Of a stretch of DNA of 64,000 bases, positions 35,088-64,000 are shown piece after piece. The DNA comes from Psilocybe cubensis. Taxonomy: Eukaryota. Every line of letters begins with the position of its first letter. Position 1 is the first letter of the stretch. The DNA is taken from NCBI GenBank assembly GCA_017499595.2, contig CM039000.1, positions 434,001 through 498,000 of the forward strand. Reading direction: 5' to 3'. A program made the position numbers and the translations under genes. The notes below the pieces were generated by a model. That model was not told the origin of the DNA, made no database searches, and saw nothing but the letters and a program-made list of their open reading frames with translations.

Positions 35088-35344
35088 CACATACTAAGAC
35101 TACATAGTACTGTATAACATGGTACAGTGGACTGGTATAATGTATCGTATGATAGGGATTCAATAAATTCATTCATACACTGAATATGACATATCTATAC
35201 ATAGTAATCTACATTGTACTATACTGTGTGCAATCCTTGAATGTGGAGAGGAGGTACCCGTCACATGGGTGGGTCGGGTGTAGGCACTTGCACACAATGG
35301 GTGTCGGAGAAATCGAATGTTGGTGTTGGGTGTCCGACTTGCAG

Positions 35345-35742
35345 TGTGCGAGTGCAAGTGCAAGAGCGTGAGTGCGAGTGTGAGTGTAGGTGCGAGTGCG
35401 GGTGCAAGTGTGGGTGCAGGTGTGGATGCGGGTGCGGGTGGGAGTGCGAGTGCAAGTGCAAGTGCGAGTGGAAGTGTGAGTGTGAGTGCGGTTGCAAGTG
35501 TGGGTGCGGGTGCGGGTGGGAGTGCGAGTGCGGATGCGGGTGGGAGTGCGAGTGCGGGTGCGGGTGCGGGTGCGGGTGCGGGTGCGGGTGCGGGTGCGGG
35601 TGCGGGTGCGGGTGCGGGTGCGGGTGCGGGTGGGAGTGCGAGTGCGGGTGCGGGTGCGGGTGCGGGTGCGGGTGCGGGTGCGGGTGCGGGTGCGGGTGCG
35701 GGTGCGGGTGCGGGTGCGGGTGCGGGTGCGGGTGCGGGTGTG
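35345..35742. repeat. (GCGGGT)n hexamer array, left subterminal region of KDZ-2
   Basis: Near-pure gcgggt runs 35554-35740 with degenerate gcgagt/gcaagt copies to the left. Confidence 0.95.
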
Positions 35743-35850
35743 AGAGTCATTCAAGAATCACTAGTAATACTAGTAGGTTGAAAAAAATTATTGTACAATT
35801 TCAAGGACAATATTCATTCATAACAAAAATGGCTACAGTAAACTATCCCA

Positions 35851-36428
35851 CTACTTTTCAAGATCTTCACGAATACTATGCCTTTCTTCTAACTTAATGA
35901 GAGTTTTTGCCATGCATTGATCCATGTATGCATGATATCTCCTATCCCCGTCAGCCACCTTCAATTTTGCAACCTCCGCCATAAAAAGCCGATGCACGGC
36001 ATCCTGATACGAAATGCCAAGTCTCTTTTGCAAAGCACACACTTCAGCGTGAAGTGCGAGCATCTCATGATCCGTCAAAGACTGAATAGTTTTTAGTTAA
36101 ATTCCTCCAATGTATAAGTGACTAAAATAGGCTTACATTTTCGGGGGGCACTCGTAAAATACCGGACAGGGTGATATACGCATCAGACTTTTTGGCATTA
36201 GACTTCTGTAAGAGAATTAGCAATGAATTTTGAAAATCATAATTAGCTTGCACTTACTTGAGTCAGGTCGGCACTAGTGACACTGACATCCTCTGTAGCA
36301 CCCATGGTTTCCAAATCGTGCTCCAAAGAGGATAACATGAAGCGGGGGACAACATATTTAATGTTGTCCGGGCCATCAACAGCGATGTAGCCTTCCGGGA
36401 TGTTTGGTAAGGTGTTCTGGACACTCAT
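35851..36428 (-). CDS. KDZ-2 cargo: small spliced protein of unknown function
   Basis: Three probable exons: MSVQNTLPNIPEGY..., KSNAKKSD...CPP, HAEVCALQKRLGISYQDAVHRLFMAE; GT-AG boundaries visible. Confidence 0.55.
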
Positions 36429-36701
36429 ATTGGGGGAATTTGACAATAACAGATAGCGACTCACCATAACTAAGGGCCTTTTATATTTGTCGGACAAGCC
36501 TCAAGCCGTTATCTAGGCGATCAGTCGGATACGCGCTTCAAGGGGCAAATGATTAAGTGCATACAATCATGTGATCGTGAACCGGATAACGAGCAACAGG
36601 GGCCCAAGCCGCTTAGCTCTCTTATCCTTTTTGCTTCCTTCCACCACCAGCCCACTAGCCCGCTCCCAAGCTTGCACCTCAAGAACTCAACTTTATATAC
36701 C

Positions 36702-39534
36702 ATGGACTCCAAAATCACCACCGCCCAATCCCTTCGTGCTGCGCTTGCAAAACTAGACGCCGATATCAAGGAGGCAGTGAAGAGTGGGGAGGTTAAAAAG
36801 ACGATGAGGAAGTTGAATGTGGTCCTGGTGCACCCGAAATTTTTTTTTACCGTGTTACATTACTAACCTAGAGGTACAGAGAGAGGTCTTGCGCGTCAAA
36901 AAGGCGAAGACCCATCCCGAAATCTTCAAGGAATTCGGCCACTTTTTGTGGTCGGTTGTGGTGGATTACAAAAGGTGCAGCAATGCGAGCGACTTTGACG
37001 TTGCTAGCTTCGCTGCCAAGCATCGCGATGCGCTGGCAAAAATTGAGGGCACCGGCCCACAATTGACGTCTACCACAGAGTCCGGACTTGTCAATCCGAC
37101 ACAAGTTCCCGACATGTCGCAGTCGGCTACCGCTCGCATTCCCCATGTATCGCAGTCGGCCACCCCTTGCCTTTCCGACGCATTGCAGTTGGCCACCCCT
37201 CGCGTTTCCGATGCTTCACAGTCGCCTACCCCTCGTGTTTCCGATGCGTCGCAGTCAGCTGCCCCTTGCGTTTCCGACGCATTGAAGTCGGCGACCCCTC
37301 GTGTTCCCAATGCGTCGAAGTTGGCGATCTTCCGTGTTCCTGATGCGTCAAAGTCCGCCATCCCGCAGGCGGCGGCAAATGACATTCCAAATGTGTTGCA
37401 GTCGGCCCCAAATCGCGGTAACCGCAAGACACCCGCAACTCAGTTGTCCGCAGAGTCGGGCGGGTTCAAGCTGACGCCCTCTGAGGCTACAATTTGTAAG
37501 TACTATTCATATTGCTATGTGTTACCTTTATATTAAATCACTGGTGGGTTTCTTTTAACTCAGTGGCATTGTCCAATGTAATAATGAAGCCAAACCATGC
37601 CTCAAGGGCAGTTGCAGGTATGTATTTCACTTTTTATGTATATGATATTCTCTTTGATGTTGCTACTTATACTAGAACTTGCTACTTCATCCTCAACCCA
37701 TCATGTTCCTCCGCCTGCCAATAACCCGGCTCAAAAGTCCAAGACCCAGATTCAGCGAGGAAAGAGGGGCTCAAAGAGCGGCGAGAGCTCGAGGGGAAGC
37801 CTCCCAACAAAGTCAGTCGGTTTGTTCGCTCATGAGGTTGCGATGGCACACTTTGACCGCCCCGATAGCCCTGAAAACAAGTTCAGGGCATTAAAGCTGC
37901 AAAAAATGCTGAAGAAGGCTCCACCCCAAGAGCCCAAATCGGGCTCTGAATACGAAGAAGTGTCGGAGAGTGAGGAGTCGGCCGTGGAGACTGGGTCAAA
38001 GCGCAAGAGGTCAGTAAAGGCGCCGACTCCGACAACAACGACTCCAACTCCGACTACGACTACAACTACAGCCACAAAGTGTGATCGATGCCTCAAAAAC
38101 AACAAAGAATGCCAGGAGATATTAAGCGACAGTGGGAAACGTGCGTATGCCTTTTGCAGCAAGCACAAGAAGGGTTGTACATGGGGAGGTATCTTGGTTT
38201 CTGAAAATCGTCGGGCGAACAAGGCATCTGCGGCAAAGACGTCAAAGAGGGGACCGAAGGGCAAGAAGTCGGAATCGACTCCTCCCTCTAATGATGAGGC
38301 CATGCCGCCCAAAAAACGGGTGAAGTCTCAGCAATGTGTGTGCTACATAGCTATTTGATTTTTTATGATTCTAATTTCCATACATCTTTTCTAGTTGTGA
38401 TAGACACCGATGAGGCCTCAGAGGGCGAACAGGCTGCTACAAGGCCAACACAAAGGTCGATGCAGAAGCAAAAAAGCAAGCCTTCGGAATCGGGTGCGTT
38501 TAAATATATTTTATTTACCTTGTTTGAAGCTCATGTTCTTTGAAGTCGATTTTGTTAAGATTAGCTCCGGCTCCGACACCCCCGCTCCTTCCAAACCTGC
38601 TCCGACTTCTGCATTCTCTGCACCCTCAGCAGCAGCTCAGAACCCCGCTTCTCTTCCATCGCGTTGTTTGCAAGACTCCGACATCATTGACATCCCAACC
38701 ATTTCCGACTTCGCCAGGCGCATCAATGAGTTGGAAATCATGGGTTGCGCGACTCAGGTTGACTTAGCAATTCTAAGAACAACCAACGAAGATCTGCAGG
38801 AGGAGCTTTCCAACTTGAAAGCGGAATATAACTCCCTCAAGCGCGGTTACGACAACCTATACGAGAGAGTTAGTAGGCATCGCAATGCTGCGGTTGATCG
38901 GCATTCGGCGTTTTCGTCGAAGTGGGAGGCTGGGATGCAAAAGGTCAAAGCCGAGGTGAAGTATCTGTCCGACTCTCTTGAAAGGACCGACACCACTCTC
39001 CTCTCTCTTGAAGGCCGCGTTGACGAGATTCAAATGATGCATCAAATGACTAGTGACGGCGCATACCTTTCTGAGGAGTTGGGTGAAGACTTGGAGAGTG
39101 CCAGTGAGGATGGTTTGGAGGATGGTTCAGTTGCAATGGATTTGTCTTCGGATGACAAGGCAAGTACTTCCAGCCCTGCTACCAACCTCAATGCCGACTC
39201 CGACGTCAACGACAATCCCGCTTCCGCTTCCACCTCCGACTTCGACGCCGATCCCGCTTCCGACAACGCCGATCCCGCTTCCGACCACACCGATCCCGCT
39301 TCCGCTGACAATGCCGATCCCGCCTCTGATGGCACTGCTAATGCTGTCACGGGTAAGAAAGCGGATCACAACGCCACTGACACCAACATTTCTGCTGCGG
39401 ATCACGGAGTCAAGGCAATCGGAAGTGAAAACATTGAAGGTAGTGGCCCAATCGGTGATGTTACTCCTCCGCAACCACCCACTACACCACCAGCACTTCC
39501 ATTGTCACCCCCCCCCCCCGCCCTCTATAGATAA
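36702..39534 (+). CDS. KDZ-2 cargo: Zn2Cys6-like coiled-coil protein (one Cys apparently lost)
   Basis: Multi-exon; 11-aa repeats VSDASQSATPR; CDRCLKNNKEC-x10-YAFCSKHKKGC; coiled coil LRTTNEDLQEELSNLKAEYNSLK; acidic/Pro tail; same position and strand as 16960-19537. Confidence 0.65.
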
Positions 39535-39682
39535 CAATGCATTGTAGTAGATTGGTGGGGGGCTATTTTTTAAAAAAAAAATTGCTTAATATAATAATTT
39601 GTTTGCTTGTTCTCATATATCACTGAGTACCTAAAATTGCACCTTAGGTATAATAGAATGTAAGCTAAAATAAAGCCGGCAA

Positions 39683-42077
39683 TTAACTAGTTCGCTCTCG
39701 AGGGCGTCGGGCCCGTTTTCCCTCAATAATCAATGTTTCTTCTACTTCTTTTCGTTTCCTTCGTGCATGTACAGGAGCGGGTTTATGCGCAGAAGCGGGT
39801 GTGGATGCAGGTTCAGGGGCAGGTGGTGCTAACACAGAAGCGGGTTCCTGCTCAGGAGCAGATGTGGATGTGGGCTCAGGGGCAGGTGGTGCTAACACCG
39901 GAGCAAGTTCCTGCACAGGAGTGGGTGCATGCATAGGAGTAGGTGTGGATGTGGGCTCAGGGGCGGGTGTGGATGCCAATACAGGTGCGGGTCCCTGTAC
40001 AGGAGCGGGTGCAACTGAACTTGTTGGCACCTGCAACCCAAGTAGTTGGTCAGAAACCCGCCATGCATCCTCTAGTTCTTGATGATTCTTCTGATGCTCT
40101 GCAATCTCCGCTGGAGTAGTAGGTGGTTTCCTAGGTCGGGGTCGGGGTCGGGATTGAGAACTTTGGATGGCAGGGGGTTGAGTTGCAGAGGATTGAGTGC
40201 CAGAGATTTGTTGACTTGCATCCTTTGGATCCACAACATTATTGGAGCTGCTAATAGGCCCACTTCGCAATGCTGGATCAATCATACAATCCAAAATTAT
40301 GTTGGTACTGGGAGGTGTTACAGTCCCAGTATGCATAGATTCCTGGGTGGAGTCAAATGTAATCAGACTTGATGCACCCTGCATTTCCTCAATTCGCATT
40401 GGAGTTTTCTTTGGCTTCTTGGGTTTTTTGGGTGGTGGAGGCCGACGTTTGGGTTTTTCTGTGTCAACATTGCGAATCTCATCGGGATACCATGTATCTT
40501 CCACATCCTCTCCTTTTCTCCCCTTTTTAACCTTGTGAAAGCGAAACACTTGACTGAGTGGAAATGTTTCTTGACGTGATCGGAGATGTGTAAATAATTT
40601 GCGCAAGTCTTCAAGGTCAAGGAATTGGGGTCGCTTCAGCTTGAAGCGGGGTGGTAAATATTCTGGAGAGATGAATTTGGATTGATAGAGTTCAATTGCT
40701 TCGTAGGGGGTTTGCGAAGTCCGACCGTGTGTCGCAAGTTCTATAAAAAAAATAATACCAGTTAAATTCAAAGTCTTCAAATGTGATTATGCTTACTATA
40801 GTTTTGACCAAGGTAAAGACGGAGCAGTGATTCCAAGTCTTTTCTATTGACCTTGGATGCATCAAAGTCTTGAGGTAAGATTGGGAACCCATCGGCATCT
40901 TGTTCAAGTATTAATAGATCAGATTTTGCTGTTATATGTATCCCAGATGTTGCTCTTTCTTTGGCGTTTAATAATCCACGGACATAGGTACTGATTAGCC
41001 TCTTCATCTGTGTTACTTCATCTGGCTTTTGCTCTTCAAATAGTGTTGAACAGACCCCAATAACACTGGCTACTTGATCATGACTATATATTAAATCAGT
41101 CGGAGTCGGGCGGAGTTATTGAATCAATCGGAGTCGGTTAGGTCGGAGTCGGCCATGATAAGTAATCAGTCGGAGTGTGTCGGAGTCGGAAATGAGTAAC
41201 GTGTGAAAATGGACTTGTAATTAAAACGCACACTTGGACTGAGAGTTGGCCAGATTCATTAATCTGGCAAACAAATGTGATACTCATTAATCCCATTTCT
41301 GCCCATTGTTGGTTTGCTGCCTCATCTAGCTTCTTGAAGGCATATTTCTTTGCTTTTCTAAATACAATTTGAATAGTAGGTCAATATTCTATTTTAATAA
41401 AACACTGACTTGCGTTTGTCTTCATCAGAGTAAACCACGGATGCATAATTTGCTGCTTCCACATCCAGCTGGCGTTTTTCGCGGTCGGACATTCGAGAAA
41501 TGATGTTGCTCATTGCTTTCATGCGGTTTTCGAAAACGCCTGGTGTCCCAACTCCTGCTGATTCTATTCCCAGAATACTAGCAATTTCCTTGTAGACTTC
41601 GTCTCTTCTGTTATACCAGAGAACAGTCGTGCGCTTCAATTTTTTACCCATTGTGGCTGCTTTAGTAAGTTTCTCCCCCCTCCAGTTGTTTCGGATCCAT
41701 GCAAGTAGTTTCTATAACATAAGAATTCAGTTGCAAATATAGTATAAAATATATAGCGTTATACCTATTGTATTGTCGGACCCGACACCCGACAGAAATT
41801 CTCAATAAAAATCAATTACTCCAATAGGTGCACATACCTTTGCCTCCTCCTGCATAAATTCTTTACTACGGCTTACGGTTCTGGTTTTACTCCAGTAATT
41901 GAAAAGATCAGGTAGTATTTCGCACACCACCTGCTTACGATCAAGGTTAGTTGCAGCTTTAGTGTAATTATCTTTGTGTTTCTCAATTATTTCGCGTTCT
42001 TGTCGATCATAGACTCTAACCAGTCTATCATGGGCACGAAAGATGTCTTCGAGTACCGCATTTTCAGTACTGGCCAT
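39683..42077 (-). CDS. KDZ-2 cargo: homologue of the helical/HMG-like gene
   Basis: [34 protein letters not shown]...HLRSRQ, terminal IEGKRARR align with the KDZ-1 gene. Confidence 0.65.
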
Positions 42078-42386
42078 ACTATACCAAATAAAATAAGTTA
42101 AAATTGATGAGGTAGTTCTCTACAGAGCCAACAAATATTGGAACAGACTAACCTTGAGGCTATGTTGAGGCTTGGGTTCTCAGAATCAGATGCACCCCAA
42201 AAATATTGGGGGTTGGAGAAGAATGAATGTGGAAACACACACACCAGAATCCTGCTCCCTTTATACAAGTCCATAAACATGAGCACATGCATATTAGGTA
42301 AGGCTAAACTGTGCAGTTGGATTGAGCCACCCTAATGTATAGCAATAATCAACCAAGACAGGAGCTTTTCTTATCTTGTTCCTATC

Positions 42387-45300
42387 ATGCCATCTCAACG
42401 AACATCAAGTAACAGAAAGTCTAGAAAGAAGGCACTGTACGAGGATGATGCCAATGCAGCAGATGCTGTCACATACAGAAATCAAACCAGAACCACTCGA
42501 GCAGGAAAGGTGGTTTCAGAACTGGTCAAGGTCTCTTTGAGTACTGCAAGTCAACCCCATAAAAAGATTCCAGTGGATCCGGGAGAACAGGAGCAGAACA
42601 CATTTAACGGGGATGGTGGCTTTAGTGAGGATGAAAACCAGCCATCCACAAGTCACCAGAATGACAATGCAGTCCCAAAAATACGGAAGGTATGAGCATT
42701 GTTTTTCATTGTACAAATTCATCTTACCAGTATTCTATGGCCCATAGACACAGCGAGACTATATCAATGAATTTGTGTCTCGTGTGGATAGCTTACTGGG
42801 AGCATTATTAACCCGTGAAGCACCCAACATTTCTGAGGACTCTGAACATCCTATTTGTTCTAATTGTGATAACTCAATTGCGGTATGGCGGTGCAAAGAT
42901 TGCAGCTTACCATCCCTTGTTTGCAGAAAGTGCATGAGACATACTCACCGTACAAATCCAATGCACAAAGTAGAATGTTGGACAGGAACACACTTCAGGC
43001 CGGCTTATCTATGGGAGACTGGCACCTATATTCTGATACCCCATCATACTGGAGACTCTATGTGCTCTTCATTGACTTTCCAGGTTAATTACCTTGAAGG
43101 TATTGAAGAAACCAAGGACGAGGAGGAACAAAATCAATTACAACAATTGAATTGGAAACAAGCGCCCGTCGGACCATTGACAGATCACACGGACAACATT
43201 GACATTCAGATGGATACTCTTGAGGATAACCCAGAGAATTTGGATCCGGATGGCCCTACAGATGAGGAGTTTGAGGAATACTTGGATAGGTATTGAGAAA
43301 ACCCACATACATTGGACAATATCCAAGATTTCGACGATGAAGAGGAAGTAGATGAGGTGGAAGCCGATATATGTGATTTGCCACCCTATCTCCGACCAAA
43401 GTCGGGAAGCAAAGCCATTCCAACACAGACTCCAAAGACCGATGGACTTAATAACGCATATATTTGGGCAGTTTACACTAATGGTGTCCACCACTTGGCT
43501 ATGGTTTATTGTGTTTGCCATGGTGCCAACAACCTTCCTCTGGATAACAAGTTTTCACCGTATCCGTACAGTCTTCTCTGCCCAACTTCTGGATTATTTT
43601 CGTTTATCCAATCTTGAACTCAAGGCCTCAGCATATCAGTTTTACTCCCTTGTCCGACGAATGACAAATCCAATGTCTCCTTCAAGTGTAGTAGATCTAT
43701 ACAACGAGTTCCAAAGAATGTCCCGACTTTGGCGGTGGATGAAAAAACTTAAATGGGCGGGGTTTGCAGGGCATAATGGGAGGACTGCACTGTCTGTTGG
43801 AAAAGGAGAGCTTGCAATTTTCTGTCCTGCATGCCCACAACCTGGAATCAATTTACCCACTAATTGGAGAGAGGACACAAATCAATGGGTGTATAAGCGG
43901 ATATTCGTGGCGGATGGAAATTTCAAGGCTGATCATGTCCGCTCAGAAAAGCCATCTCGGGATGTCTGGCTTTCAGAAGGTAGTGGCATGATACCAGATT
44001 GTACAGAGTATCATGCTTTTCTCAAATCTGCTATTGAGGCACTAACGGTGCGTTTAATTAACTTGCTACTTTAATATCATTTGGAAAGCTAACTAATACT
44101 AGGGTGCTCCATGCGAGAACACATTCCGTGCAATTCAAAATTCTCTGTTGTCAAAATCACCTTGCGATGTTACAGGAATTGTCGGCATTGCATGCACCCA
44201 ACATGGCTGCTATGCTCCAAATGCTCTTGTTGACCTTTTCAAAGGTGAGCAGCAAAAAAATGTCGACTTTGCATTTTTAGCTGCACTTGCATCGACCGGT
44301 GTCCATCCCGACCAAGGCACAATGGTTATATATGACATTGTTTGCCAGTATATCATCTGGCTACTCAAACGGATTAAGGATCATCTCCCTAATGGACTCA
44401 AGATTGACAGAGCAATTGGGATGTTTCATGTTCATGCACACAAAGATGAGTGTTTTTTCCGATATGCACCGACTTTTATTCCTGGTGCCGCTTGTGTTTG
44501 CGGAGAAATTCTTGAATCGCTCTGGGCCGACTTAAATGCCATATTCCCTGCAGCTTGTACAGCAACATTAGCACATCGAGCAGAGATTCTTGATGATCAC
44601 GCATGCGATTCCAACCACAAAAAGGCACTTGGGATAACCCGATATCTTTGCCGACGATATTTGGAAGCCGAAGAAACACGAGAAAAATATCGGATATGTT
44701 TCTCTAACCTTACCAATGCTGCCGATCCCGAAGCAGTCCAGTTGTGGACTAAGCAGATTGAGCATGTAGAGCAACATCGGTTGGAAGATCCAAAGCTCAT
44801 GGACATTTATATGGCTAAACGGCCTGGATCTGCTCCAGTCAATACAGCCGCAAGTGATTGTGCATGTCCGACTGCACCACTTACTCCAGTACAATCGTGG
44901 ATTTAATTTGCTTTAGTAATTGAAGAGAAACAGTACGTATAATTGTTTTAAATATTACTTTTCTAATACAAGTTTTGATGTTTTAGATTGGATATACGGA
45001 TGCGTGCTCGCCGTCTTGTCAATCATGACCGCCTCACCGACCGTGTCAAACTTCAAAAACTGCGCGATGCCCTCAAAACATTAATGGTTCAACTTAATAA
45101 ACTCCAGGCCAAAGCGGGTGTTATTGCTACTGGGAGGCAAGATATTGACATATCCGACCAGATTTTAATTGACTGGGAAGATGAAGAAGATGTTTTGGCT
45201 CCGGGGTCGGGTCCGACAGTAAACGAGGACATTGATCTACAACCAATATGCTTACCGTCGAATGGTGCTGCAAGCGAAATTTATGCATCAGATGAACTTG

Positions 45301-46062: not shown

Positions 46063-46110
46063 TTTGAAATACTTCTCTTTCTTATCTACTTCCATCTATC
46101 TACATCCATC

Positions 46111-47829: not shown

Positions 47830-47969
47830 TGCGTACATACTTAGTATTCTATATACTATCTATGTACTTTCAAATTTTATTTGTTGAATTTCTGTGTGCA
47901 CACTTGGTACTACTTATTGAGTAAAACACAAAAATCCTAAAATTGCTGCTATCTCCAAACCACAAATCC

Positions 47970-51177: not shown

Positions 51178-51189
51178 ACGAGGGGGTAC

Positions 51190-53208: not shown

Positions 53209-53215
53209 CTCCCCC

Positions 53216-56200
53216 TCAAACTGCGGCGCGTAAACCCATCGCGTTCGCAAAGTGCTTCGCTTTCGCGCTCGGAAGAGCCTTCGTGAGAGTGTCGGCAGTT
53301 TGGTCATCGGTAGGGCAGTAAATCAACTTGATAGAGCCGGAGTCGATAATGTATCGAATAAAGTGGTAACGAATATCGATGTGCTTTGTGCGTGCGTGAT
53401 ATTGACCTCCGTGAGCGAGAGCGATGGCCGATTGATTGTCGCCGTAGAGTGTGGTGGGGTGTACTATCTTGATATCGAGTGCGCTAAAAATATCGTTAAC
53501 GAGGCTGCGTAACCACATGGCTTCCTTTGAGGCGTGGGTAGCGGCCACGTATTCGGCCTCGGCTGTCGACAGGGTGACCAACTCCTGCTTTTTCGACGAC
53601 CACGACACAGCTCCTCCATCCACCACGAACACGTACCCCGAAATCGCCCTCCTGTGGTCTTGCGACGCCCCATCTGCGTCTACGAAACCCACCATGTCCC
53701 TCTTCTCACCGCCATACGTCAACGCCAAGTCTCGGGTGCCCTTGAGGTACCGAAAAATCTTCTTCACCGCCTCCCAGTGAACCCACGCCGGGTTGTCAAC
53801 GAATTGCGCCACGGTATTTGTCGCAAACGTGATGTCGGGTCGCGTTCCCATTGACGCGTACATGAGCGAGCCCACTGCTTCACGATATGGTACGTTTTTC
53901 ATCCGTGCAATGTCTGCAAGAGCGGTCGGGCATTGTGACCTGGCAAGTGGCTGACACGGATCCATAGGGATAGCACTTGGTTTCAGGTCGTCGAAATTGA
54001 AGCGCGTCAAGATGGTGTCGATATACGCATCCTGGGAGATGGAGACGGTTTTATTGGCGGTGTCGCGAGTGATTTTGAAGCCGAGGAGCCATCTGCATTC
54101 ACCAAGGTCCGTAATCTTGTATTTCTTGTTGATTTCGACCTTAAACTGCGCAATTAGTGGCGTTGAACTCCCCGTTACCAGGCAATCGTCGACGTGTACC
54201 CCCACGATGACAATTTCGCCATCCACCACCTTCACAAACACACCTGGATCCGCCTCCAACACCCTAAACCCCAACTCCCCCATCGCCTTTTTCAACGCCT
54301 CATACCAATTCCTCGCACCCTGCTTCAACCCGTAGAGTGCCTTGTGAAGGCGATACACGTAGCGACGTGAGTCCGTTGCAAATCCGCGTGGCTGCTCGAG
54401 GTAAATGACTTCATCTTCATCCAGGTTCGAGTTCAAGAACGCGCTATCGAAGTCGATGCTTTTGAGCGGCCATCCATTGCGGTTAGCAAGTGCAATTAGG
54501 TATCGGAAGGTGGGCAGGCGTGCGACAGGTGCGAAGGTTTCCGTGTAGTCCACGCCATGGATCTGAGTGAATCCGCGTGCGACGAGACGAGCCTTGTACT
54601 TGTCAATCTCGCCTGCGGCATTCTTCTTGATGCGTAGGACCCATTTGCTGCCAACGACGTTAGCATTTGGTGGGCGTTCAACCATCTTCCATGTCCCGTT
54701 CGCCTCGAGTGATGCAAGCTCGGCTTTGATCGCGGCCTCCCATTTCGGCCAGTCGGATCTCCTTCTCGCTTCGTCGTATGTCGGGTTCAGCCCCTCAGCT
54801 GCATCCATTGCAGTTGCCATCGCAAAATCCATCGCCTCAACAATGTCCCATGCATCCGCCAACAGCCCTTCATCACCTGCACCCTCAACACTGGCCTCGC
54901 CTTCCTCGCCCTTCTCGGAAACCTCTGGGACAACCTGGAGACCGCGCGGGAACTGGCTTGCTGCAGGTAAGTTGCTAACTTTTGCAACTCCCTGCCGAAT
55001 GTCTCTGACGTACGCGCTCTCCTTTCGCAGCCGTGTACTTCGACGTAGCTCAGGTTCTGCTGTTGTAGGAGTGTTGGTGTCGGGTTTGGGAATGTTTGGG
55101 GACACGTAGCGCTTGGAATCATCCTCACGCTCGTCGTCTGACTCCCCCTCAAGCGGTGCGTGTTCCAGTACTACCTCATCTGGCATAAATCTGACACTTC
55201 GCTCAACTATCACAGATCTCTTCTCTGTGTAGTACACCCGGTGGCCGTGGCTTTCTTCATCAAACCCGACCCACTTTCCTTGCTTTGCTCGACCGTCCAG
55301 CTTCGAAGCGCTAGTATCATGCACCCACATGTCACAGCCCCATGGTGGAATGTTCGAAATGTCCGGCTTTTCACCCGTCAACACCTCGTATGGTGTTGCT
55401 TCCCCAAGCGCCTTTGTTGAGGTGCGGTTCTTCAGATAGACCGCATGATGCATTGCCTCACCCCACAAAAACTTTGGTAGGCCACTGTCGTGTCGCATTG
55501 CACGCACCTTGTCGAGGAGTGTGCGGTTGAGGCGTTCCGCAACGCCGTTGTATTCAGGGGTGTCATGTATGGTGAGTCTTCGAGTGGTGCCGGCCGCCTT
55601 GAGATGGGCTGAGAATTCATTACTTAGATATTCTCCCCCTCGGTCACTGTGGAGTTTCTTAATGGGGGCGTCAAACTGGGTCTTCAGCCAGGCTTCAAAC
55701 TCGCAGTAGTGCTGGAAGACCTCGTCCTTGGTGTGCATCAGGTAAATCTTTGTGTACCGAGTGTAGTCGTCTGTGAAGCTGACGAAGTAAGACTTATGGT
55801 TGATAGTCTCCACAGGTGCATCACCCCACACATCCGAATGGATCTCCTGGCCAAGTTCCGTGGCCTGCTCCTCCACCCGCTCTCTTGCTATTGGCTTACG
55901 ATGGGCCTTCCCCCACTCGCACGATGGGCAAAACGACGGCTTGCTGTCCTCATCAAGCTCGACTCCAGTTACCAGGCCCTTCTCAACGAGCTTCCGCGCT
56001 GCATCATGGCTGATGTGCCCCATCCGGCGGTGCAATTCATCGATGGTCAACACCTCGACAACCCGCCCAGCATATCCTGCTGCCTCCGGACGTGCCGTGA
56101 ACACACGGTAAAGTCCATTCTGCACCTCGATCTTCCCCAGCATCTCACGCGATCTGTTGTAGATCCGACAGAGTGCTCCTGAGAACACAATGGTGCCGCC

Positions 56201-57781
56201 CGCCTGTGCAATTCGGCTGATGGAGACCAGGGTAACCCCCATCTTTGGGGCATAAAGGACATCACGGAGCAACTGCTTTGTTGCAGGCCCATCGCCGTTA
56301 GGTATGTCAACATACATATCTCCCTTGCCAGTCGCAAAGAACTGACGTTTATCGGCAGCTGTGATAGGCTTTGGGTCGGTCTCAACGAAGTTAACGAAGC
56401 GATGTCGGTGTCCGGACATGTGGCGCGTAGCACCCGAGTCGTACAGATCCATGTCGACAAGGGTCTGCTTTTGAGTGAGGGTGGCAAATGTGAATGTGCT
56501 GTGGGCTTCATCTGTAGCAGTAAGGGACAGGACTGCTCGAGAGGTAGGTGCGTAAATTTCCTCCCATTCGTCATCGGAGTCATCATCGGAGTCTGACACA
56601 GATTGCAGACCCGGAAATTCCTCATCACTGTCCTCATCGCTGGAGTTGCTAACTGACTGGAGGGCTGGCATGCCTTCAGAGTCAGCATCGGAGATGGGAT
56701 CGTACTCGGAGCAGCTGGAGATGAGCTCGAGGATATCGGCGTCAGAAAGGGAGAATTCGGATGCGGAAGAACAGGTGAGTTCCTCCGACAAAACATTGAA
56801 TTCATCATCTGATGTGGTCATGGCCATCCAACCCTCCTCGTCCCCATCATCCTTCGCACTAGCCGCTGTCTCCTTCCCCTTCCCCTTGTTGCCTTCGCCT
56901 CCACTGCTCTCCTTGCCCTTCCCCTTGGACTTCGAGCTACTCGGGCCTTGCCCTGCCCTTCCGCCACCCTCTGCCCAGCACTCGGACTTGAAGTGCCCAC
57001 GCTTCTTGCAGTTGTGGCACTCGACATTCTTCTTCCACCCGCCCTTCCTCCCACGTGAACTTCCCGCATCTCCATGAAAGGCCGAGTTTTCTTCTCGCCT
57101 GCCGGTACCCTTCTGGCCCAGCGCACGACGGTCATACTCTTCGGTCACCGTGTGCATCAATTCCTCAGCGGATAAAGTTGTGCCAATGACGCTTGACGTG
57201 GCGTTTACGGCGGATATGTAGGGGTCGTAGGAAGGTGGGAGAGATCCCATGATGATTGCATAGAAGTCGTCATCAGATGGCGGCTGTCCCATGGCCGCCA
57301 AATCTTCGCGCATCAAGCGCAGCTTGTTGAAGTGTGCTCGCACATCTCCACGGTCCGGGCAGCGTTCCTGCTGTAGCCGGCGTCGCAAATCCACGGAGAC
57401 CATCCGTGATTTGTTTTCGAAGTCTCTTGCGAGAGCATCCCAGATATCGAAGGCGGTTCCTTTGCCTTGGATTTTCATAAAGTGTGAGTCCGAAATCGTT
57501 GCCGCAATCTGTTGCTTAACGATCGCCTCTCCTTGGTTCCAGGCCTTCAGCTCCTTTCGCCATTCCGCATCAAGAACTTCCTGCTCGGTGGTGAGCGGCT
57601 GATTCGGGACACGAGTGATGGGGTCCGGCGGAGCTACTGCGGTTCCGTCGACGTGCTCGAGTTTGCCACGCGCGTCAATGGACCATAGAAAGCGTTGCTT
57701 GTAGATCACCCAGTTCTTGCCCGCCTCGTCGAGCTTGGGGATCTTCATGAAGTCGTCGCTAAGTTTGGAAATGGAAGACAT
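53216..57781 (-). CDS. Copia Gag-Pol polyprotein (gag, PR, IN, RT, RNase H)
   Basis: CHNCKKRGHFKSEC, YDSGATRH, LHRRMGH..CPSC, SDVWG/SDRGGEY/NGVAERLN, YKARLVARG, ALYGLKQ, VHVDD, FVDAD, TKHIDIRYH; uninterrupted. Confidence 0.97.
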   Translation of the reverse strand: MSSISKLSDDFMKIPKLDEAGKNWVIYKQRFLWSIDARGKLEHVDGTAVAPPDPITRVPNQPLTTEQEVLDAEWRKELKAWNQGEAIVKQQIAATISDSHFMKIQGKGTAFDIWDALARDFENKSRMVSVDLRRRLQQERCPDRGDVRAHFNKLRLMREDLAAMGQPPSDDDFYAIIMGSLPPSYDPYISAVNATSSVIGTTLSAEELMHTVTEEYDRRALGQKGTGRREENSAFHGDAGSSRGRKGGWKKNVECHNCKKRGHFKSECWAEGGGRAGQGPSSSKSKGKGKESSGGEGNKGKGKETAASAKDDGDEEGWMAMTTSDDEFNVLSEELTCSSASEFSLSDADILELISSCSEYDPISDADSEGMPALQSVSNSSDEDSDEEFPGLQSVSDSDDDSDDEWEEIYAPTSRAVLSLTATDEAHSTFTFATLTQKQTLVDMDLYDSGATRHMSGHRHRFVNFVETDPKPITAADKRQFFATGKGDMYVDIPNGDGPATKQLLRDVLYAPKMGVTLVSISRIAQAGGTIVFSGALCRIYNRSREMLGKIEVQNGLYRVFTARPEAAGYAGRVVEVLTIDELHRRMGHISHDAARKLVEKGLVTGVELDEDSKPSFCPSCEWGKAHRKPIARERVEEQATELGQEIHSDVWGDAPVETINHKSYFVSFTDDYTRYTKIYLMHTKDEVFQHYCEFEAWLKTQFDAPIKKLHSDRGGEYLSNEFSAHLKAAGTTRRLTIHDTPEYNGVAERLNRTLLDKVRAMRHDSGLPKFLWGEAMHHAVYLKNRTSTKALGEATPYEVLTGEKPDISNIPPWGCDMWVHDTSASKLDGRAKQGKWVGFDEESHGHRVYYTEKRSVIVERSVRFMPDEVVLEHAPLEGESDDEREDDSKRYVSPNIPKPDTNTPTTAEPELRRSTRLRKESAYVRDIRQGVAKVSNLPAASQFPRGLQVVPEVSEKGEEGEASVEGAGDEGLLADAWDIVEAMDFAMATAMDAAEGLNPTYDEARRRSDWPKWEAAIKAELASLEANGTWKMVERPPNANVVGSKWVLRIKKNAAGEIDKYKARLVARGFTQIHGVDYTETFAPVARLPTFRYLIALANRNGWPLKSIDFDSAFLNSNLDEDEVIYLEQPRGFATDSRRYVYRLHKALYGLKQGARNWYEALKKAMGELGFRVLEADPGVFVKVVDGEIVIVGVHVDDCLVTGSSTPLIAQFKVEINKKYKITDLGECRWLLGFKITRDTANKTVSISQDAYIDTILTRFNFDDLKPSAIPMDPCQPLARSQCPTALADIARMKNVPYREAVGSLMYASMGTRPDITFATNTVAQFVDNPAWVHWEAVKKIFRYLKGTRDLALTYGGEKRDMVGFVDADGASQDHRRAISGYVFVVDGGAVSWSSKKQELVTLSTAEAEYVAATHASKEAMWLRSLVNDIFSALDIKIVHPTTLYGDNQSAIALAHGGQYHARTKHIDIRYHFIRYIIDSGSIKLIYCPTDDQTADTLTKALPSAKAKHFANAMGLRAAV

Positions 57782-57887
57782 GGTTGACAGTAGGAAGTGG
57801 AGAGTTTTCTCAGAGAGTAAATAGGTCACTGGTCGGTTGAGTAGAATGAATGCTGGATTGATTCAGTGTCTCTCGGGGCCCATAACC

Positions 57888-58175
57888 TAATGGAAAGTAA
57901 ATCTCAGTACGATAGAAACGAACTGATATATTTAGTAGATACCTAATGGAAAGTAAATCTACGTTAAGAGTAAGTAAGATTGAATAGAACACAAGTAAGT
58001 TAGCTGGCACACACCTCAGTACGATAGAAACGAACTGAGGTGGTGCCACTCCTTCGAGAGAAATATAAACGAAAACTACGATGAATGTAACACCAACAAG
58101 TATGAATGTAACACGAATTATACATAGCCCAGACCGCCGTCACGAGGACGCGCCGGTCAGTTTGTCAATCCAACA
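57888..58175 (-). repeat. Copia 5' LTR (288 bp)
   Basis: Reads TGTTGG...CCATTA on the minus strand, followed directly by the PBS. Confidence 0.95.
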
Positions 58176-59746
58176 TCATCTTCTGCAATATCTGACTGCC
58201 TTCCTGTTTCTTCGTCCAAAGTTCCGCCCAAGTTGTCATCCAACCCCGCATTTGTGCTGCTGTCATCGTCGAAAAGGCCTAATGCTGCATCCAAGCTGTC
58301 ATCCGACTCGGAACCAAAAAGGTTGTCGTTTGCGGCTTGGTTTATAATATCGTTATCCGATTCGGAGTCACTGGAGTTGCCATTACTGGAGACTGGATCC
58401 GCCGCTTCTGTAAAATCTTCAACGCTGGAAAGCGGGACCTGATCTGCAACTTCTGCAAAATCTCCGACACTGGAAGGCGGGCTCCCTTCGGTACCGTACT
58501 TGAAGTAGTCGGGTTGGGTGAATGTGGCGGAAGGCAATGTTTGGACGGCGGATATGGCTGCAGAATCAAAGGTGCCGACCTGAGACAAAGAGTCTTCAGT
58601 GGAATATTTAACCTTTTGCCCTTCCTTGAGATTTTTTGCGTATCCTGTATGTTCTTTCGGATTGCTGACCTCGGAAATGCTGAGGACATCTTTGATGGTA
58701 AGAGATTTCCCCCAAGTCCACTTGTCGGATGGGGGCGTCTGCTTTGAATTCATCAAATCGGCGGGTATTTCGGGTTTGCGGGTTTTGATGTTGTCGCGTC
58801 CATACGTTGCCGCACCCTCAATAGCAGCATCGTCAAGTTCCTGGCTAAGCTCGTAGAGCTTGAAAAATCCCATTGCACGTCGCGAAATACAAGCAACTTG
58901 GTTGGAGGCTACATCGGCAAGACATGTAGAGAAATTCTTGACACCTCTGAACTGAACAAGCAGATCATCAGAAAGATTACGGAATTTAGCACAACAACCA
59001 CAGTGTATGTCACCGGGTTTAGAGTCGGGAACAATCTGAGTCGGATAAATAAAGTTTGTCTGACCAGGGGCATCGGGAGGGGGATCAAGAGTAGACAGCT
59101 GCCCATGACGTATACCACTCGGCTCAGCGGGAGGCAGCGGTTTGGTGGAATCCTTTGCTTTGGGGAAACTTTTAGCATACTGTTCACCATGAAATTTCAC
59201 GATTTTCCCAATGGTAAGATGATTTAACATTCTTTCGGGACTTGGGGGGGTATTACGAGTCCACCAGTCATAAAGGTATTTTTTGACACCTTTCTCAAAA
59301 CCCTGGTCATTGTCATCCGCGGCCAAAGAGGGCAAAAGATCGGGGTGAAAGTCCATTGGAAACTCTTCGGGTAGACATGCAAAAAGAGATTCGGAAAGAA
59401 GGCGAAGGATGTATGGGATATCCAGCACCCAACCAACTGCATATGCTTGACCGACAACTGCCATAATGTAGTGCTATTGAGTACATGAGATTTATCAGTG
59501 ATAAGATGATGATCATTTCTGATAACACACCAATTCTTCCTGAAGGCAACGTTGCATCCATCCATGGTTGTCCAGACTGGCGTCGATGATATGAATTAAA
59601 GCCTCGCGAAGTCTAGAAGCACCACAATATATGATTCCTTGCGCCAAAACCTGCTCGGCCTTTTGGGACCCAACTTGGATGTCAAAGGGGTTGAACGGTC
59701 TGATCGTGATCAAGGGTTGGTCAAAAAATGACTCGGAGTCACTCAT
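58176..59746 (-). pseudogene. KDZ-3 WW/CxxC cargo gene, 3' end split by Copia (remainder at ~52876-52920)
   Basis: CGASRLRE..WMQRCLQEEL, GQAYAVG..LDIPYIL, WWTRNTPP, CGCC, RRAMGFFKLYE, KWTWG; removing the Copia gives ...IAEDEGSGSEFQSES. Confidence 0.75.
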
Positions 59747-59778
59747 GGTGGTTGCAGATTAAGGACAAAAATTTCAAA

Positions 59779-62700
59779 TTACAAAGGTTTGTAATGTTTA
59801 TTTACTGATCTAAAAGATCGATCTGATATCAAAGCCAAATGATGCCACATTTGCGCTTTGCGATGTGCATATGCTATTGCACCCGGCAAAATTGTCGGGT
59901 TATCCTTGATAGCCGACTTCCAGGTTGCACTCTTGTGTAAGAAATATGTCACGGTCCATTGCATCTCATACCTAACCAATGTACTCTCCTCCTTCCATCG
60001 TTGAAAGTGAGCTCTGGCTCTTAACCAATGTACTCTTTTAACTGAAAGGTTAATAGAAATTAGCGCTCAACAAAAATAGAATCAATATGAGAAATTAACT
60101 GACATTCAAGCACTGTTGCCGGATCAGCGTTATCGCCGAGAGAATTTGGATCGGCATTGTCGGGAGCGTCGGGATCCAGCACCCATCGGGGACCTAACCG
60201 TTGATTTACTGAGTACCATATCCATGACAAGCGGAAATTTGTCGATCCTGGTATGTTCGGGTTAAGAACAGCGGTACTTGATCGGACATCATCTTTGGTG
60301 AGGACCCGAAACTCCCGAAGAATATTGTTGTCGGCACCAAGTTGAACTAGGCAATCTCGACATCGTGAGTAGGCTTGTGCATGATGTGAAATGCGTTCCC
60401 TCAACTCCTTTGCTGCCGCTTGTCCTCGTGTACGCACACCTTTTCGTGGGCCCTTTCGTATGACATCGGAATACTGAAATGACCTCTCTGCAATAAGTTC
60501 TCGAATTTGATTCAGGTGTCCTCGAGCTTGTGAAATCCTAGCATGTATTTCAGATGGTGCATGAATGATGTCCACATTCCCATTAGAAGGTAGGAATATT
60601 GTTTGAAGGTCAATAGGCTCATACACTGCTGAACCCGATCCCGGCGCCAAAATGTCTTCCTCATCCTCCCAATCTATAAAGAGTTGTTCGGGTATTTCAT
60701 TCCCTTTGGAAGCTGTCGGAAGAACTCCCGCGTCATTTTGCAGAATGCTTAGTTGAGCCATTAATGCTTTTAAAGTTTCGCGTAGCTTTATTAATTTGTT
60801 ACGTTCTGCAAGCCGATCATGGTTAATAAGGCGTCGGGCTCTCATCCGAATGTCCAATCTGTGTGTATAACTATTAACACCATGATAAATAATCAAGACT
60901 GATTTAAACACATACTGTCTTTCTTCCACAACTACTGCAAATTGTATCCATGACTCAATCGGGTTTAGAGGTCGATGCGGAACTGCATCGGGAGTGACTG
61001 TGGAGGTTCCAGGCCTTTTTGCTGCATATATATCCATAACCTTTGGGTCCACCAACCTCTTGGACTCAGCTTCTTCAATTTGTTGTTTCCATAACTTTAC
61101 TGCATCGGGGTCAGCTCCTTGGGTTAAGTTTACAAATGCTACCCGATACTGCTCTTGTTTTTCTTCAGCCTCATCATGCCTACGACAGAGATATTTTGTG
61201 ATTCCAAGAGCCTTTTTGTGATTAGAGTCGGAAGCATGATCGTCTAGCAACTCTGCACGGTGCGCCAGAGTTGCTGTGCGGGCGGCGGGAGATATATGAT
61301 TCAAATCCGCCCATAGTGATTCCAAAATTTCTCCGCAGACGCAAGCGGCACCAGGAATGAAGGTTGGTGCATATCTAAAGAAACATTCATCTTTATGAGC
61401 ATGTACGTGAAACATGCCAATTGCCCGATCAACTTTGAGTCCTTTGGGGAGTAGATGCCCAATACGCTTGAGAAGATAAATGATATATTGACAGATTATG
61501 TCGTAGATAACCGCTAGGCCTTGGTCGGGATCAACACCTGTTGATTTTAATGCTGATAGAAGGGCAAAGTCGACATTCTTTTGTTGCTCTCCTTTAAAAA
61601 GATCGACAAGTGAATTGGGGGCGTAACATCCATGCCTTGCACAGGCAACCCCCACAATGCCTGTAACATCGCAGGATTTTGATGATAATAATGAATTTTG
61701 GATTGCCCGGAATGTGTTTTCACATGGTGCTCCCTGAAGAGGGTAGTTAGATATTCCACCTGTTATTTATCAAATACAAAGCTCTTACTGTCAATGCTTC
61801 AATGGCGGATTTCAAAAATTCACCATACTCCATTCGATCGGGTGTCATTCCACCACCTTCCGACAACCATATATCGCGGGATGGTTTTTTAGATCGGACA
61901 TGGTCTGCTTTGAAGTTTCCGTCCGCTACAAAAACACGCTTGTAGACCCAGCGATTGGGGTCATCTTTCCAGTTGGCACTCAAATTGACACCAGGCTGTG
62001 GACATGCTGGGCAGAAATTGGCTAGTTCTCCCCGCCCAACCGACAGTGCACTTTTGCCGTTATGGCCTCCGAATCCTGCCCATTTTAACTTTTTCATCCA
62101 TCTCCATAAGCGGGACATCCGTCGAAATTCATTATAAAGATTGACAACGGTATGCGGGGCAGTCGGATTGGTGACACGTCGCAATAGGGAGTAGAACTGG
62201 TAAGCAGAAGACTTGAGTTCTAAATTTGAGAGTCGAAAATAATCTAATAATTGTGCGGAAAATAGTGTGCGGATTTGCTGGAAACTTGTCGGTAGCAATC
62301 GGCATGCCATGAGATCTAAAGGAAGCTGCCCCGACCCATGGCAAACGCAAGATACCATAGCCAAATGATGAAGGCCATTAGTATGCACAACTCGCACATA
62401 GGAATTGTTTAACCCATCAGCAAAGGGGGCATTTCCAGTGAAGGTAGAGTTGGGATCCCGATTCCCGACCGTTGGTGGCGAAAGATATGCTGGCATGAAT
62501 CGGACATCGGAGTCGGCATCACCTACCTCTGCTTCATCATCACCATCTTCAAATCCCTCCAAATTTGATGGATCCTCCCGAAGCTGGTTGAGATACTCCT
62601 CAAACTGATCATCTGTAATGCCATCTGGATTTTGGGTATGTTCTGAGTCCTCCTTAGTATCATCCATAAAAATATCATTGTCATATCTTGAAGGATATGA

Positions 62701-63524
62701 AGGTGATTCAGATGTCGGGTGTGCGACGCGCAGTAGAGCCTGTTCTTCAAAGTCTTTCCGCTCTTCCAACTCCTCAAGAAGTTGCTTTTGAAATGTTAGA
62801 GATTCGCATAGAGGAGGAAATTCTGCAGAATGGTGAGATATTAATAGATAACATCCCACCTCCCATAGCTCTGCTGATCGGAAATAGGCACCATTCCAAC
62901 GCTCTATCCTATGCATTGGATTAACCTGATGCTCATGTCGTATGCACCGTCTGCATAATAGAGATGGAATAGAGCAATCTCGACACCTCCATACCGAGAT
63001 GCAATCGTTATGGCATTGTGTGCAGATGGATGGTGCATTAAGCGCCCTCGGCGCTTCTCGACTCAGCAATGCACCAAGTATATCATCCACTCGTTCCACA
63101 AATTGCAGAATGTAGTCTCTTTGAGTCTTTAACGTATAAGATAAGCCAGCAACTCCATTTAAAACTTTGAAATTACCTTTCGAGGTCTGGAGTCTACAGG
63201 TCTTCCATCGTCGCGGTGGTCATCAGTGTTGTGTATGTCATAATCACCTTCATAGCCTTCTGATGTATCCTGATTGTCTATATGCCATGGATCACCTGTA
63301 TTACGCCTCTGTGGAACTGCCAATGAGACTGGAACAAGGAAAGTCAGTGATTGTAATAATAGCTTGCATTTTTTGATACCTTTTACCAAGTCCGGAACCG
63401 TCCTTCCAGTTCTTGTTGTACGAGTACGATTTTCATATGTTACTGCGTCTGCTGCATCAGCATCATCCTCATATAATGTCCCCTTTTTGGATCTTCTTGA
63501 ACTTTTGGTTCTCTGTGACGGCAT
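59779..63524 (-). CDS. CxC2-KDZ transposase of KDZ-3, no lesion seen
   Basis: MPSQRTKSS start; CTQC..WRCRDC; VHTNGLHH..CVC; FCPACPQPG; ADGNFK; CARHGC; YDIICQY; FHVHAHKDEC; GEILESLW; LLDDH; RYEMQWT; about six exons. Confidence 0.88.
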
Positions 63525-63720
63525 AGAAAAGGAATAGAAAGAGCAGAACAAAGTACAAACGTGAAGACTCTTAGGTTCCTTATCATGAAATCGATTAGAT
63601 CTTATTCCTGAATGGAGGTTGTGAAATTTGTCATACAGGCCTGAAAAATATAAATAGGGAAACCTTCTAGCTAAGCTGAATTCTTTACACCCCCATAAAA
63701 AGGTATAAGCAGCCCAGAAC

Positions 63721-64000
63721 ATGTCGGAGATAGATGAGCAAGATGTTCTAGATGTTTTTCAGACCCACGATAGGCGCAAGAGGGTGTACAATAGTCTGGA
63801 GAGAAAGGAAATAGACCCTTTCAAAGAAGAATATTTTGCGGCAACATCTAATCTTGAACGCAAACAGGTTGTATGCAAGATTCTCCCTTAACTATTTAAT
63901 ATTTGGGTTACGACAGGAAGTAGACGTCTGTCTGCAACTCAGGAATTTGCACAAAAAGAGGCAAAGGTATGTTACTATTGGTTACTTACCTGACAATATT
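63721..64000 (+). pseudogene. First exon of the KDZ-3 helical/HMG-like gene with premature TAA at 63889
   Basis: MSEIDEQDVLDVFQTHDRRKRVY...TSNLERKQVVCKILP*LFNIW...KEAK|gtatgt, homologous to 41802-42077; absent from the ORF track. Confidence 0.75.

Follow-up and report, generated by a model that had tools for sequence, protein, structure and literature searches.

We describe a 64,000-nucleotide (nt) stretch of the Psilocybe cubensis genome (NCBI GenBank assembly GCA_017499595.2, contig CM039000.1, positions 434,001 to 498,000 of the forward strand; ‘the window’ from here on, with positions counted from its first letter), in which KDZ transposons, a group of large cut-and-paste elements, appear to be written through with short, family-specific words. 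Two of the three KDZ elements in the window, KDZ-2 and its sister KDZ-3, carry the 6-mer TCCGAC (GTCGGA on the opposite strand) far above expectation, and many of their relatives recovered from a metagenome are similarly filled with a word of their own. On balance, and with some reserve, we favour the view that such words are element-wide recognition sites for a DNA-binding protein which the element itself would encode; lineage-specific words built on a CCG/CGG triplet appear, moreover, to be general among the Kyakuja-type KDZ transposons sampled here. Whilst binding repeats beside transposon ends have long been known, we did not find described a family word that runs the length of an element and through its own reading frames.

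TCCGAC in KDZ-2 and KDZ-3

The window contains 86 copies of TCCGAC and GTCGGA combined; 100 shuffles that preserve dinucleotides gave 25.6 +/- 4.8, and none of them reached 86. With expectations calculated for each segment from a first-order Markov model, KDZ-2 holds 44 sites (28 on the plus strand and 16 on the minus strand) where 4.5 are expected (3.23/kb; Poisson P 3e-28), and the two parts of KDZ-3 (Table 1) hold 23 where 2.4 are expected (3.12/kb; P 2e-15). Elsewhere the observed and expected numbers are 8 vs 5.3 in the host genes, 6 vs 6.6 in KDZ-1, 2 vs 3.1 in the Gypsy element and 3 vs 3.4 in the Copia element. A first-pass annotation of the window had called the word dense in KDZ-2 and KDZ-3 and poorer in the two retroelements, and both statements are borne out by these counts; it had also named, as the outcome that would speak against a family-specific signal, a density in retroelements and host genes that matches that of the KDZ elements, and this is not what we find, the sister elements being enriched and the other segments standing at expectation.

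Tandem arrays and coding for serine-aspartate (Ser-Asp) explain only part of this excess. Six small arrays hold 16 of the 44 sites in KDZ-2, with 28 lying outside any array, and one array with units of 64 and 73 nt holds 11 of the 23 in KDZ-3; if each array is counted once, 34 and 13 sites are left, and masking of the repeats except for their first unit leaves the word at the head of the 6-mer ranking in both (38 vs 3.9 expected in KDZ-2; 14 vs 2.2 in KDZ-3). When the arrays are cut from KDZ-2 altogether, TCCGAC ranks first of 1999 6-mers. Gene A, a Ser/Asp-rich gene of KDZ-2, contributes 18 of the 44 sites; without it, 26 remain in 10.6 kb, where the background rate of the window would give 4.7 (5.5-fold). 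Thirty-eight sites lie inside frames, and 15 of them encode an in-frame Ser-Asp, nine of these in the acidic tail of gene A; the sites inside frames as a whole occupy phases 0, 1 and 2, in both senses. Gene A writes 10 of its 17 Ser-Asp dipeptides as TCC-GAC, where its own codon use predicts 14% (P 2.6e-5), and the Gypsy and Copia frames do so for just one of 19.

The enriched core is CCGAC (97 vs 16.7 expected in KDZ-2, preceded by T in 44 cases, C in 26, G in 19 and A in 8; 41 vs 9.0 in KDZ-3). The first-pass annotation had instead proposed a CGGA core, shared by all of the window's KDZ families and distinguished by family-specific flanks; CGGA, however, stands at 8.5/kb in KDZ-2 vs 7.9/kb in Gypsy and 8.9/kb in Copia, which is no enrichment, and what the families have in common shrinks to a CCG/CGG triplet. 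Amongst the decayed neighbours of TCCGAC (TCCAAC and the like) there is no notable enrichment.

As to where the word sits, subterminal arrays, introns and coding repeats had been put forward, with mixed outcome. The KDZ-3 array is as proposed, with 11 exact copies, but the right subterminal array of KDZ-2 holds only four exact copies, alongside seven of CCCGCAC and several degenerate forms (TCCAAC, CCCGAC). The site at 45782 falls within what is probably an intron, a putative one of 48 nt (45752-45799, GTGAGT..TAG) that contains TCCGACCCGAC, whereas that at 45936 is coding and not intronic. The coding repeats are real: gene A has a 33-nt repeat at 37105-37368 and a 21-nt repeat at 39245-39323. 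A further cluster, of GTCGGAGTCGG units, lies upstream of the gene B frame, in an AT-rich gap that has no open frames. In one other sequencing run, the KDZ-3 array carries an extra CCGCTGCC (at 52394).

KDZ-2 and KDZ-3 are sister families, 79% identical in the protein sequence of the catalytic domain; their DNA is 69% identical over 2.5 kb, beyond which no more than a 109-bp subterminal block can be aligned. An alignment of 5,240 columns (60% identity) takes in 11 sites of KDZ-2 and 9 of KDZ-3, and not one of them has a counterpart at the same position in the sister element; with density kept and no positions shared, the sites evidently turn over.

KDZ-2 is flanked by a 7-bp target-site duplication (TSD), AGAAAAC, at 35081-35087 on the left and 48727-48733 on the right. 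In four of four other runs, which stem from two sequencing studies, this site is empty: contigs join 35080 to 48727 and so skip 13,646 bp, which is the 13,639 bp of the element plus 7, with 8 letters that fit either side of the joint. Loose contig ends at 35088 (run X5) and at 48726 (runs X7 and X8) point to copies of KDZ-2 at other sites. Judging from these junctions, KDZ-2 is mobile now or was so recently, so that its word would sit in a working element.

Family words among relatives and in transposase-coding DNA

KDZ-1 is marked by other words. The window holds 19 copies of ACGGCGGA/TCCGCCGT, 17 of them within KDZ-1, and 10 of CGGATCCG, all within KDZ-1 (27 of 29 for the two words together); the two strays, both of ACGGCGGA/TCCGCCGT, lie in Copia (57207) and in KDZ-3 (58545). 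These motifs are nearly confined to KDZ-1; the first-pass annotation had not seen them in KDZ-2 and KDZ-3.

For relatives, we used one metagenome scan with an alignment of the catalytic domain, which gave 73 loci that are 27-72% identical to KDZ-2; 27 of these loci and the three elements of the window make up a representative set (n = 30). TCCGAC is dominant in none of the 47 loci of at least 3 kb, its best rank being 27. A strong dominant 6-mer (G at least 19, range 19-165, with repeats masked) is nonetheless found in 19 of the 30 elements, including 17 of the 27 metagenome loci, at a density some 4-20 times expectation; examples of the excess of a family's own word are CCGGCA in locus L013 (105 vs 4.9) and AGCGGG in L020 (40 vs 3.4). 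Top words of the control segments reach G values of 5.0 (host), 8.3 (Gypsy) and 11.5 (Copia), and all of them lack a CpG; every one of the 19 strong words holds a CpG, and a CCG or CGG triplet. Most word copies lie outside tandem repeats (29 of the 105 in L013 lie inside), and strands are balanced in most families, for instance 41/46 in L007, 18/18 in L015 and 18/17 in L069.

Several classes of word can be told apart. CCGGCA, with its flanked forms TCCGGCAT and ACCGGCAC, belongs to a 13-row clade; GGCGGA is common to KDZ-1 and L044, at a protein identity of just 50%; and the other classes are CCCGC(T/C), CCGACT, AATCGG/CCGATC, CTCGGC/GGCCGA/TCGGCCGA, CCGACGGC and CGGTAC. By our reading, CGGA/TCCG is present in about 4-5 of some 11 word lineages. 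Some families also show palindromes (CGGATCCG, TCGGCCGA and TGCCGGCA), as expected of dimeric binders. Analysis of word spacing gave no helical or fixed-distance rule and no preferred spacing of opposed sites; spacings fall on multiples of 3 and 6 (slippage, coding), and those of 6, 12 and 18 nt in the CCGGCA families reflect slippage of the hexamer.

A tree of 21 family representatives accommodates the word classes with 9 changes, where the minimum is 8 and none of 1000 label shuffles requires 9 or fewer. This pattern shows words that, as far as sequences can tell, are inherited along transposase lineages with occasional switches, such as that of L045 within the CCGGCA clade. It is in keeping with the earlier proposal that the motif goes with the lineage of the transposase, an absence of any such correlation having been named there as damaging. 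The ‘private address’ that was envisaged for each family holds to the extent that words are family-specific and follow the transposase tree, but not in its shared CGGA core.

In two long metagenome loci the family word ends abruptly some 3.5 kb short of the contig end (L021:12700-16131 and L063:12600-16079). The stop may be an element boundary, which suggests that words may be usable to delimit such elements; they could likewise serve to classify KDZ elements and their non-autonomous derivatives from sequence alone.

Protein composition is comparable across DNA homologous to the KDZ-2 transposase, and the own word of each family was counted in that DNA only. A mask of open frames of at least 100 amino acids (aa) was dropped, since it covers ~80% of any of these sequences, and a tblastx-based mask was used in its place. 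Observed and expected numbers are 21 vs 1.3 for CCGGCA in L007 and 15 vs 0.75 in L013; 10 vs 0.32 for CGGTAC in L058; 12 vs 1.1 for GGCCGA in L057; 7 vs 0.65 for CCCGCT in L020; and, for TCCGAC, 7 vs 0.94 in KDZ-2 (2,844 bp) and 4 vs 0.86 in KDZ-3. In every family it is its own word that is in excess, and not the words of the other families. The 21 coding sites of L007 cover all six combinations of strand and phase and are often synonymous with residues that are conserved in KDZ-2 (PA, PGI, CR), and the density of the word in conserved coding DNA equals that elsewhere in the element. Sites in any phase and on both strands, as dense in coding as in non-coding DNA, point to a pressure that acts on DNA across the whole element.

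What the words may be for

Synthesising these observations, we suggest that the word, which is spread over an entire element of 10-16 kb, on both strands and in coding and non-coding DNA, and is locally amplified into tandem arrays such as those near one end of KDZ-2 and KDZ-3, would be read by a protein of the element; putative candidates are the B-box-like finger and CxC2 at the N-terminus of the transposase, the product of gene B and that of gene D. Site-rich copies would be bound better and, as a result, transposed or kept active more efficiently, such that selection on the element would keep word density whilst single sites turn over. Binding might serve to join the ends, to favour copies of the element's own family, or to protect against CpG methylation. 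A word that fills the whole element would then offer a concrete handle on which protein reads KDZ DNA, and would be a new case of selection on synonymous sites inside a selfish element.

We also speculate, as a possible though doubtful extension, that each family writes a private CCG/CGG word throughout, synonymous sites included, and that its own protein or proteins coat the element; a form of ‘self-addressing’. If true, the transposase would be kept largely private among sister families in one genome, the CpG present in every word might couple recognition to methylation state, and the word might, together with the TET/JBP gene carried as cargo, protect the element against silencing. Should sister families indeed keep different words, their transposases would not be freely shared, and private transposases bear on the theory, as set out in PMC13558583, of DNA transposons that share replication machinery ‘publicly’.

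Two kinds of known system offer a comparison. Uptake sequences of Neisseria and Haemophilus, and Chi, are over-represented words of whole bacterial chromosomes, with roles in DNA uptake or recombination. KDZ words are like these in that each is specific to a lineage and far commoner than chance would have it, on both strands, in non-coding DNA and, in any phase, in coding DNA, as if genes tolerated it and copy number, not position, were rewarded; they are unlike them in that what is marked is one eukaryotic transposon family, 10-16 kb in length, with a reader that is only putative. In the plant cut-and-paste elements Ac/Ds (AAACGG hexamers) and En/Spm (12-bp TnpA motifs), by comparison, subterminal repeats bound by transposase take up a few hundred bases per end. 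The KDZ elements share with them a short CpG-containing word repeated beside the ends, with TCCGAC-bearing arrays 190-1,220 bp from a terminus and CCCGCAC arrays that are inverted between the ends of KDZ-2, but differ in a family word that runs through the whole element, transposase frame included, at its non-coding density. A repeat that stands at both ends in opposite orientations and is seldom seen inside describes CCCGCAC in KDZ-2; it does not describe TCCGAC.

Several observations weigh against an element-wide recognition signal. Known transposase sites of other superfamilies concentrate beside the ends, unlike TCCGAC, whose exact copies are dense near just one end of KDZ-2 and of KDZ-3; its orientation is opposite in the two (toward the near terminus in KDZ-2, away from it in KDZ-3), and their TCCGAC arrays show no alignment when compared. 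The motif that is symmetric between the ends of KDZ-2 is CCCGCAC, of which the left array holds 33 copies and the right array 7, with 1 elsewhere. In the body of KDZ-3 (58176-64000) the excess is modest, at 9 sites in 5.8 kb. Among the 30 representatives, 11 have no strong word, and the words themselves are the post hoc top of 2,080 classes, calibrated by three control segments from one window. The first-pass annotation had suggested that motif and DNA-binding protein co-evolve, but when pairs with the same word and pairs with different words were compared for identity in the B-box region, CxC2, the catalytic domain, gene B and gene D, none of these segments tracked the word. The terminal 200 bp of KDZ-1, KDZ-2 and KDZ-3 have no counterpart in the 73 loci that could mark the ends of these relatives. 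Finally, CpGs of the motif seem to have decayed at the rate of other CpGs and not to have been spared: of 13 CpG losses, one fell in the 6-mer and two in its core, vs shares of 7.4% and 16% of all CpGs.

Of the alternatives to a reader encoded by the element, the one that survives best, unlikely as we hold it to be, is that each family gathered sites for a different host protein, for example a zinc-cluster factor, in the service of expression or open chromatin. Fungal Zn2Cys6 (Gal4-type) factors read CGG triplets, which fits the triplet seen in all 19 strong words and its occurrence in some inverted pairs (CGGATCCG, TCGGCCGA); the GTCGGAGTCGG cluster is placed like a promoter element upstream of gene B; and, with no frame of KDZ-2 matching the Zn2Cys6 domain (PF00172) at a cut-off as loose as E <= 10, such a reader would have to be the host's. 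Saying this, the triplets of KDZ words are not paired at a fixed spacing, unlike Zn2Cys6 sites; the words are equally dense in transposase-coding DNA, in all phases, which is not where transcription-factor sites accumulate; and the words of KDZ-1 and of KDZ-2/3 differ within one genome, whose host genes in the window show none.

Less probable again is that the word is the footprint of an epigenetic or mutational process, be it the sequence context of a methyltransferase or of a TET/JBP enzyme, or biased repair. A CpG in every strong word and the TET/JBP gene in KDZ-1 would suit such an origin, as would methylation-linked decay, which is active here: between the Gypsy and KDZ-2 copies of the window (33000-52950) and those of four other runs, 27 of the 40 visible differences are CpG there and TpG or CpA here, with 4 in the reverse direction, although only 40 of 287 differences are visible in these copy-to-copy counts. 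The window copies mostly have A in place of G and T in place of C, which reads as a signature of methyl-cytosine deamination, or of a process like repeat-induced point mutation. The excess is, however, absolute (44 vs ~6.7 if all 6-mers were equally frequent), and KDZ-2 is as rich in CpG as the host genes are (43.8 vs 43.7 per kb), so that sparing from decay cannot yield it; the parity of decay between motif and other CpGs, given above, argues the same way. The complete KDZ-2 has no Tet_JBP match in the scanned frames of at least 120 aa, and a mutational process would not give sister families in one genome different 6-8-mers.

We give very little credence to the counts being a by-product of repeats and protein composition, with tandem arrays and Ser-Asp low-complexity coding as the source of the inflation, and as a full explanation this appears largely refuted. 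The single KDZ-3 array with its 11 of 23 sites, the 15 of 38 sites inside frames that encode Ser-Asp and the slippage spacings of CCGGCA lend themselves to it; yet the word keeps its rank after masking and its excess without gene A, occupies all three phases on both strands, is all but unused for Ser-Asp in Gypsy and Copia, and persists in excess, family by family, within homologous catalytic-domain DNA. Hardly credible, lastly, is a signal at the level of RNA, with the word acting in transcripts (export, splicing, protection against RNA interference): CCGAC does favour the coding strand in the right half of KDZ-2 (~36 to 8) and, in matching sense, in the KDZ-3 body (17 to 9), and one copy lies in the likely intron, but most families are strand-equal, and the word fills subterminal arrays that look untranscribed, the strand in the KDZ-3 array being opposite to the one favoured in genes.

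The elements and their surroundings

The map of the window (Table 1) is based on a Pfam scan of 51 open frames, on repeat searches and on direct reading of the sequence.

Table 1. Features of the window, with positions counted from its first letter
Feature	Positions	Strand	Content
Host genes	1-14893		among them a DnaJ fragment (near 8,000) and an Argonaute PAZ/L1 frame (11412-12110)
KDZ-1	14901-30497	+	15,597 bp; CxC2, KDZ, TET/JBP gene
Gypsy, overall	31990-51365		
Gypsy, 5' part	31990-35087	+	
Gypsy, 3' part	48734-51365		
KDZ-2	35088-48726	+	13,639 bp; within the reverse-transcriptase region of Gypsy
KDZ-2 left subterminal (GTGCGG)n array	35346-35744	+	~66 units; 33 GTGCGGG (reverse complement of CCCGCAC)
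KDZ-2 gene A	36474-39531	+	several open frames; Ser/Asp-rich; coiled-coil stretch
KDZ-2 gene B	39686-40786	-	~100-aa N-terminal domain, conserved in 10 metagenome loci
KDZ-2 cluster	41097-41192	+	four or five GTCGGAGTCGG units
KDZ-2 transposase gene	42748-46070	+	B-box-like zinc finger, CxC2, KDZ catalytic domain
KDZ-2 gene D	46110-47650	+	downstream of transposase; conserved in KDZ-3 and 11 metagenome loci
KDZ-2 right subterminal array	47970-48540	+	~41-51-nt units, form CCCGCACCCCGCACAATATTCCGACTACCCGAC
KDZ-3, first part	51366-52912	-	includes the 64/73-nt array
KDZ-3 array	51690-52585		units of 64 and 73 nt; 11 exact TCCGAC
Copia	52913-58175	-	nested in KDZ-3; long terminal repeats 52913-53208 and 57880-58175
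KDZ-3, second part	58176-64000	-	gene D homologue, KDZ domain, CxC2; continues past the window end

The elements resemble the Kyakuja-type KDZ transposons of Agaricomycetes in combining a KDZ domain with CxC2, in the 7-bp TSDs of KDZ-1 and KDZ-2 and in the CA..TG termini of KDZ-2; Kojima 2025 (PMC12730594) describes Kyakuja-1/2_LB with 7-bp TSDs, CA..TG termini and no terminal inverted repeats. The TET/JBP gene that KDZ-1 carries as cargo is a further likeness. Set against that same account, KDZ-1 differs in its terminal inverted repeats of ~303 bp and its GT..TG termini, and KDZ-2 in a 50-nt subterminal inverted block. The terms ‘subterminal’, ‘tandem repeat’ and ‘binding site’ have 0 occurrences in the main text of Kojima 2025, and the accessible parts of the papers on Cryptococcus KDZ elements, which are active, give terminal repeats and TSDs only (Huang et al. 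2024, 10.1101/2024.08.15.608186; PMC12810828). No description of element-wide family words was found in the main texts and passages covered, so that an earlier mention is possible.

In KDZ-1, the KDZ domain (PF18758) lies in the frame 24736-25797 (E 1.2e-37) and the TET/JBP oxygenase in the frame 28776-29561 on the minus strand; the N-terminal CxC2 cysteine cluster (PF18803) is matched here, as it is in KDZ-2 and KDZ-3. The element is flanked by a 7-bp TSD, CCTGTAT (14894-14900 and 30498-30504), and its insertion is young, given that its terminal inverted repeats differ at only 2 positions. A GC-rich region (53-55%) with overlapping frames on both strands includes an open frame of 794 aa at 17153-19534 (plus strand), for which there is no Pfam match; CGGA is dense around it, at 8.1/kb on the plus strand.

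KDZ-2 has no terminal inverted repeat. It has a subterminal one instead, with a left arm of 50 nt at 35136-35185 and a partner at 48630-48679 (76% complementary); the same 50-nt block recurs in KDZ-3 at 51413-51462, where it is 84% complementary to KDZ-2 48630-48679. The KDZ domain is matched in the frame 44103-44903 of KDZ-2 (E 1.2e-35) and in the frame 60063-61766 of KDZ-3 (E 2.5e-38), and the CxC2 score of KDZ-2, at 27.7 bits, is barely over the cut-off of 27. The C-terminal part of the KDZ-2 transposase is conserved, with a TAA stop near 46068.

For the accessory genes, family assignments are scarce. Gene A matches no Pfam family and has no homologue among the 73 metagenome loci. Gene B has a Pro/Ser/Thr-rich tail with basic runs after its N-terminal domain, and the 10 loci that conserve this domain belong to more than one class of word, indeed to several; the gene probably encodes an accessory protein that such elements conserve and that is as yet undescribed. 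No Pfam family is assigned to the domain, and a profile search gave only weak matches to GTF2I-like DNA-binding repeats (PDB 2dzr at E 0.09, 2e3l and 2d9b; Pfam PF02946 at E 0.1, in one of nine members), which we treat as a lead and not as a finding. Gene D, also without a family assignment, is 31% identical over 302 aa between KDZ-2 and KDZ-3 (58160-59473, minus strand). The (GTGCGG)n array reads as an open frame of 218 aa (35241-35894, plus strand) with Cys-Gly/Cys-Glu repeats, which is almost certainly not a gene.

The nest at 31990-64000 is that of one Gypsy copy hit by both of the sister KDZ elements, KDZ-2 in the reverse-transcriptase region and KDZ-3 at or in the 3' long terminal repeat (LTR). 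The LTRs of the Gypsy (31990-32165 and 51190-51365) are 176 bp long and 100% identical. KDZ-3 is inverted relative to KDZ-2, its end at 51366 is homologous to the right end of KDZ-2, and it abuts or truncates the 3' LTR of the Gypsy; since no TSD is found around the Gypsy as it now stands, truncation of that LTR by KDZ-3 may be the case. The Copia, with LTRs of 296 bp that are 99% identical, inserted into KDZ-3 after the latter had landed in the Gypsy. Just past the KDZ-2 insertion site, a 26-nt stretch (48784) that is missing from the window copy of the Gypsy is present in the Gypsy copies of three runs.

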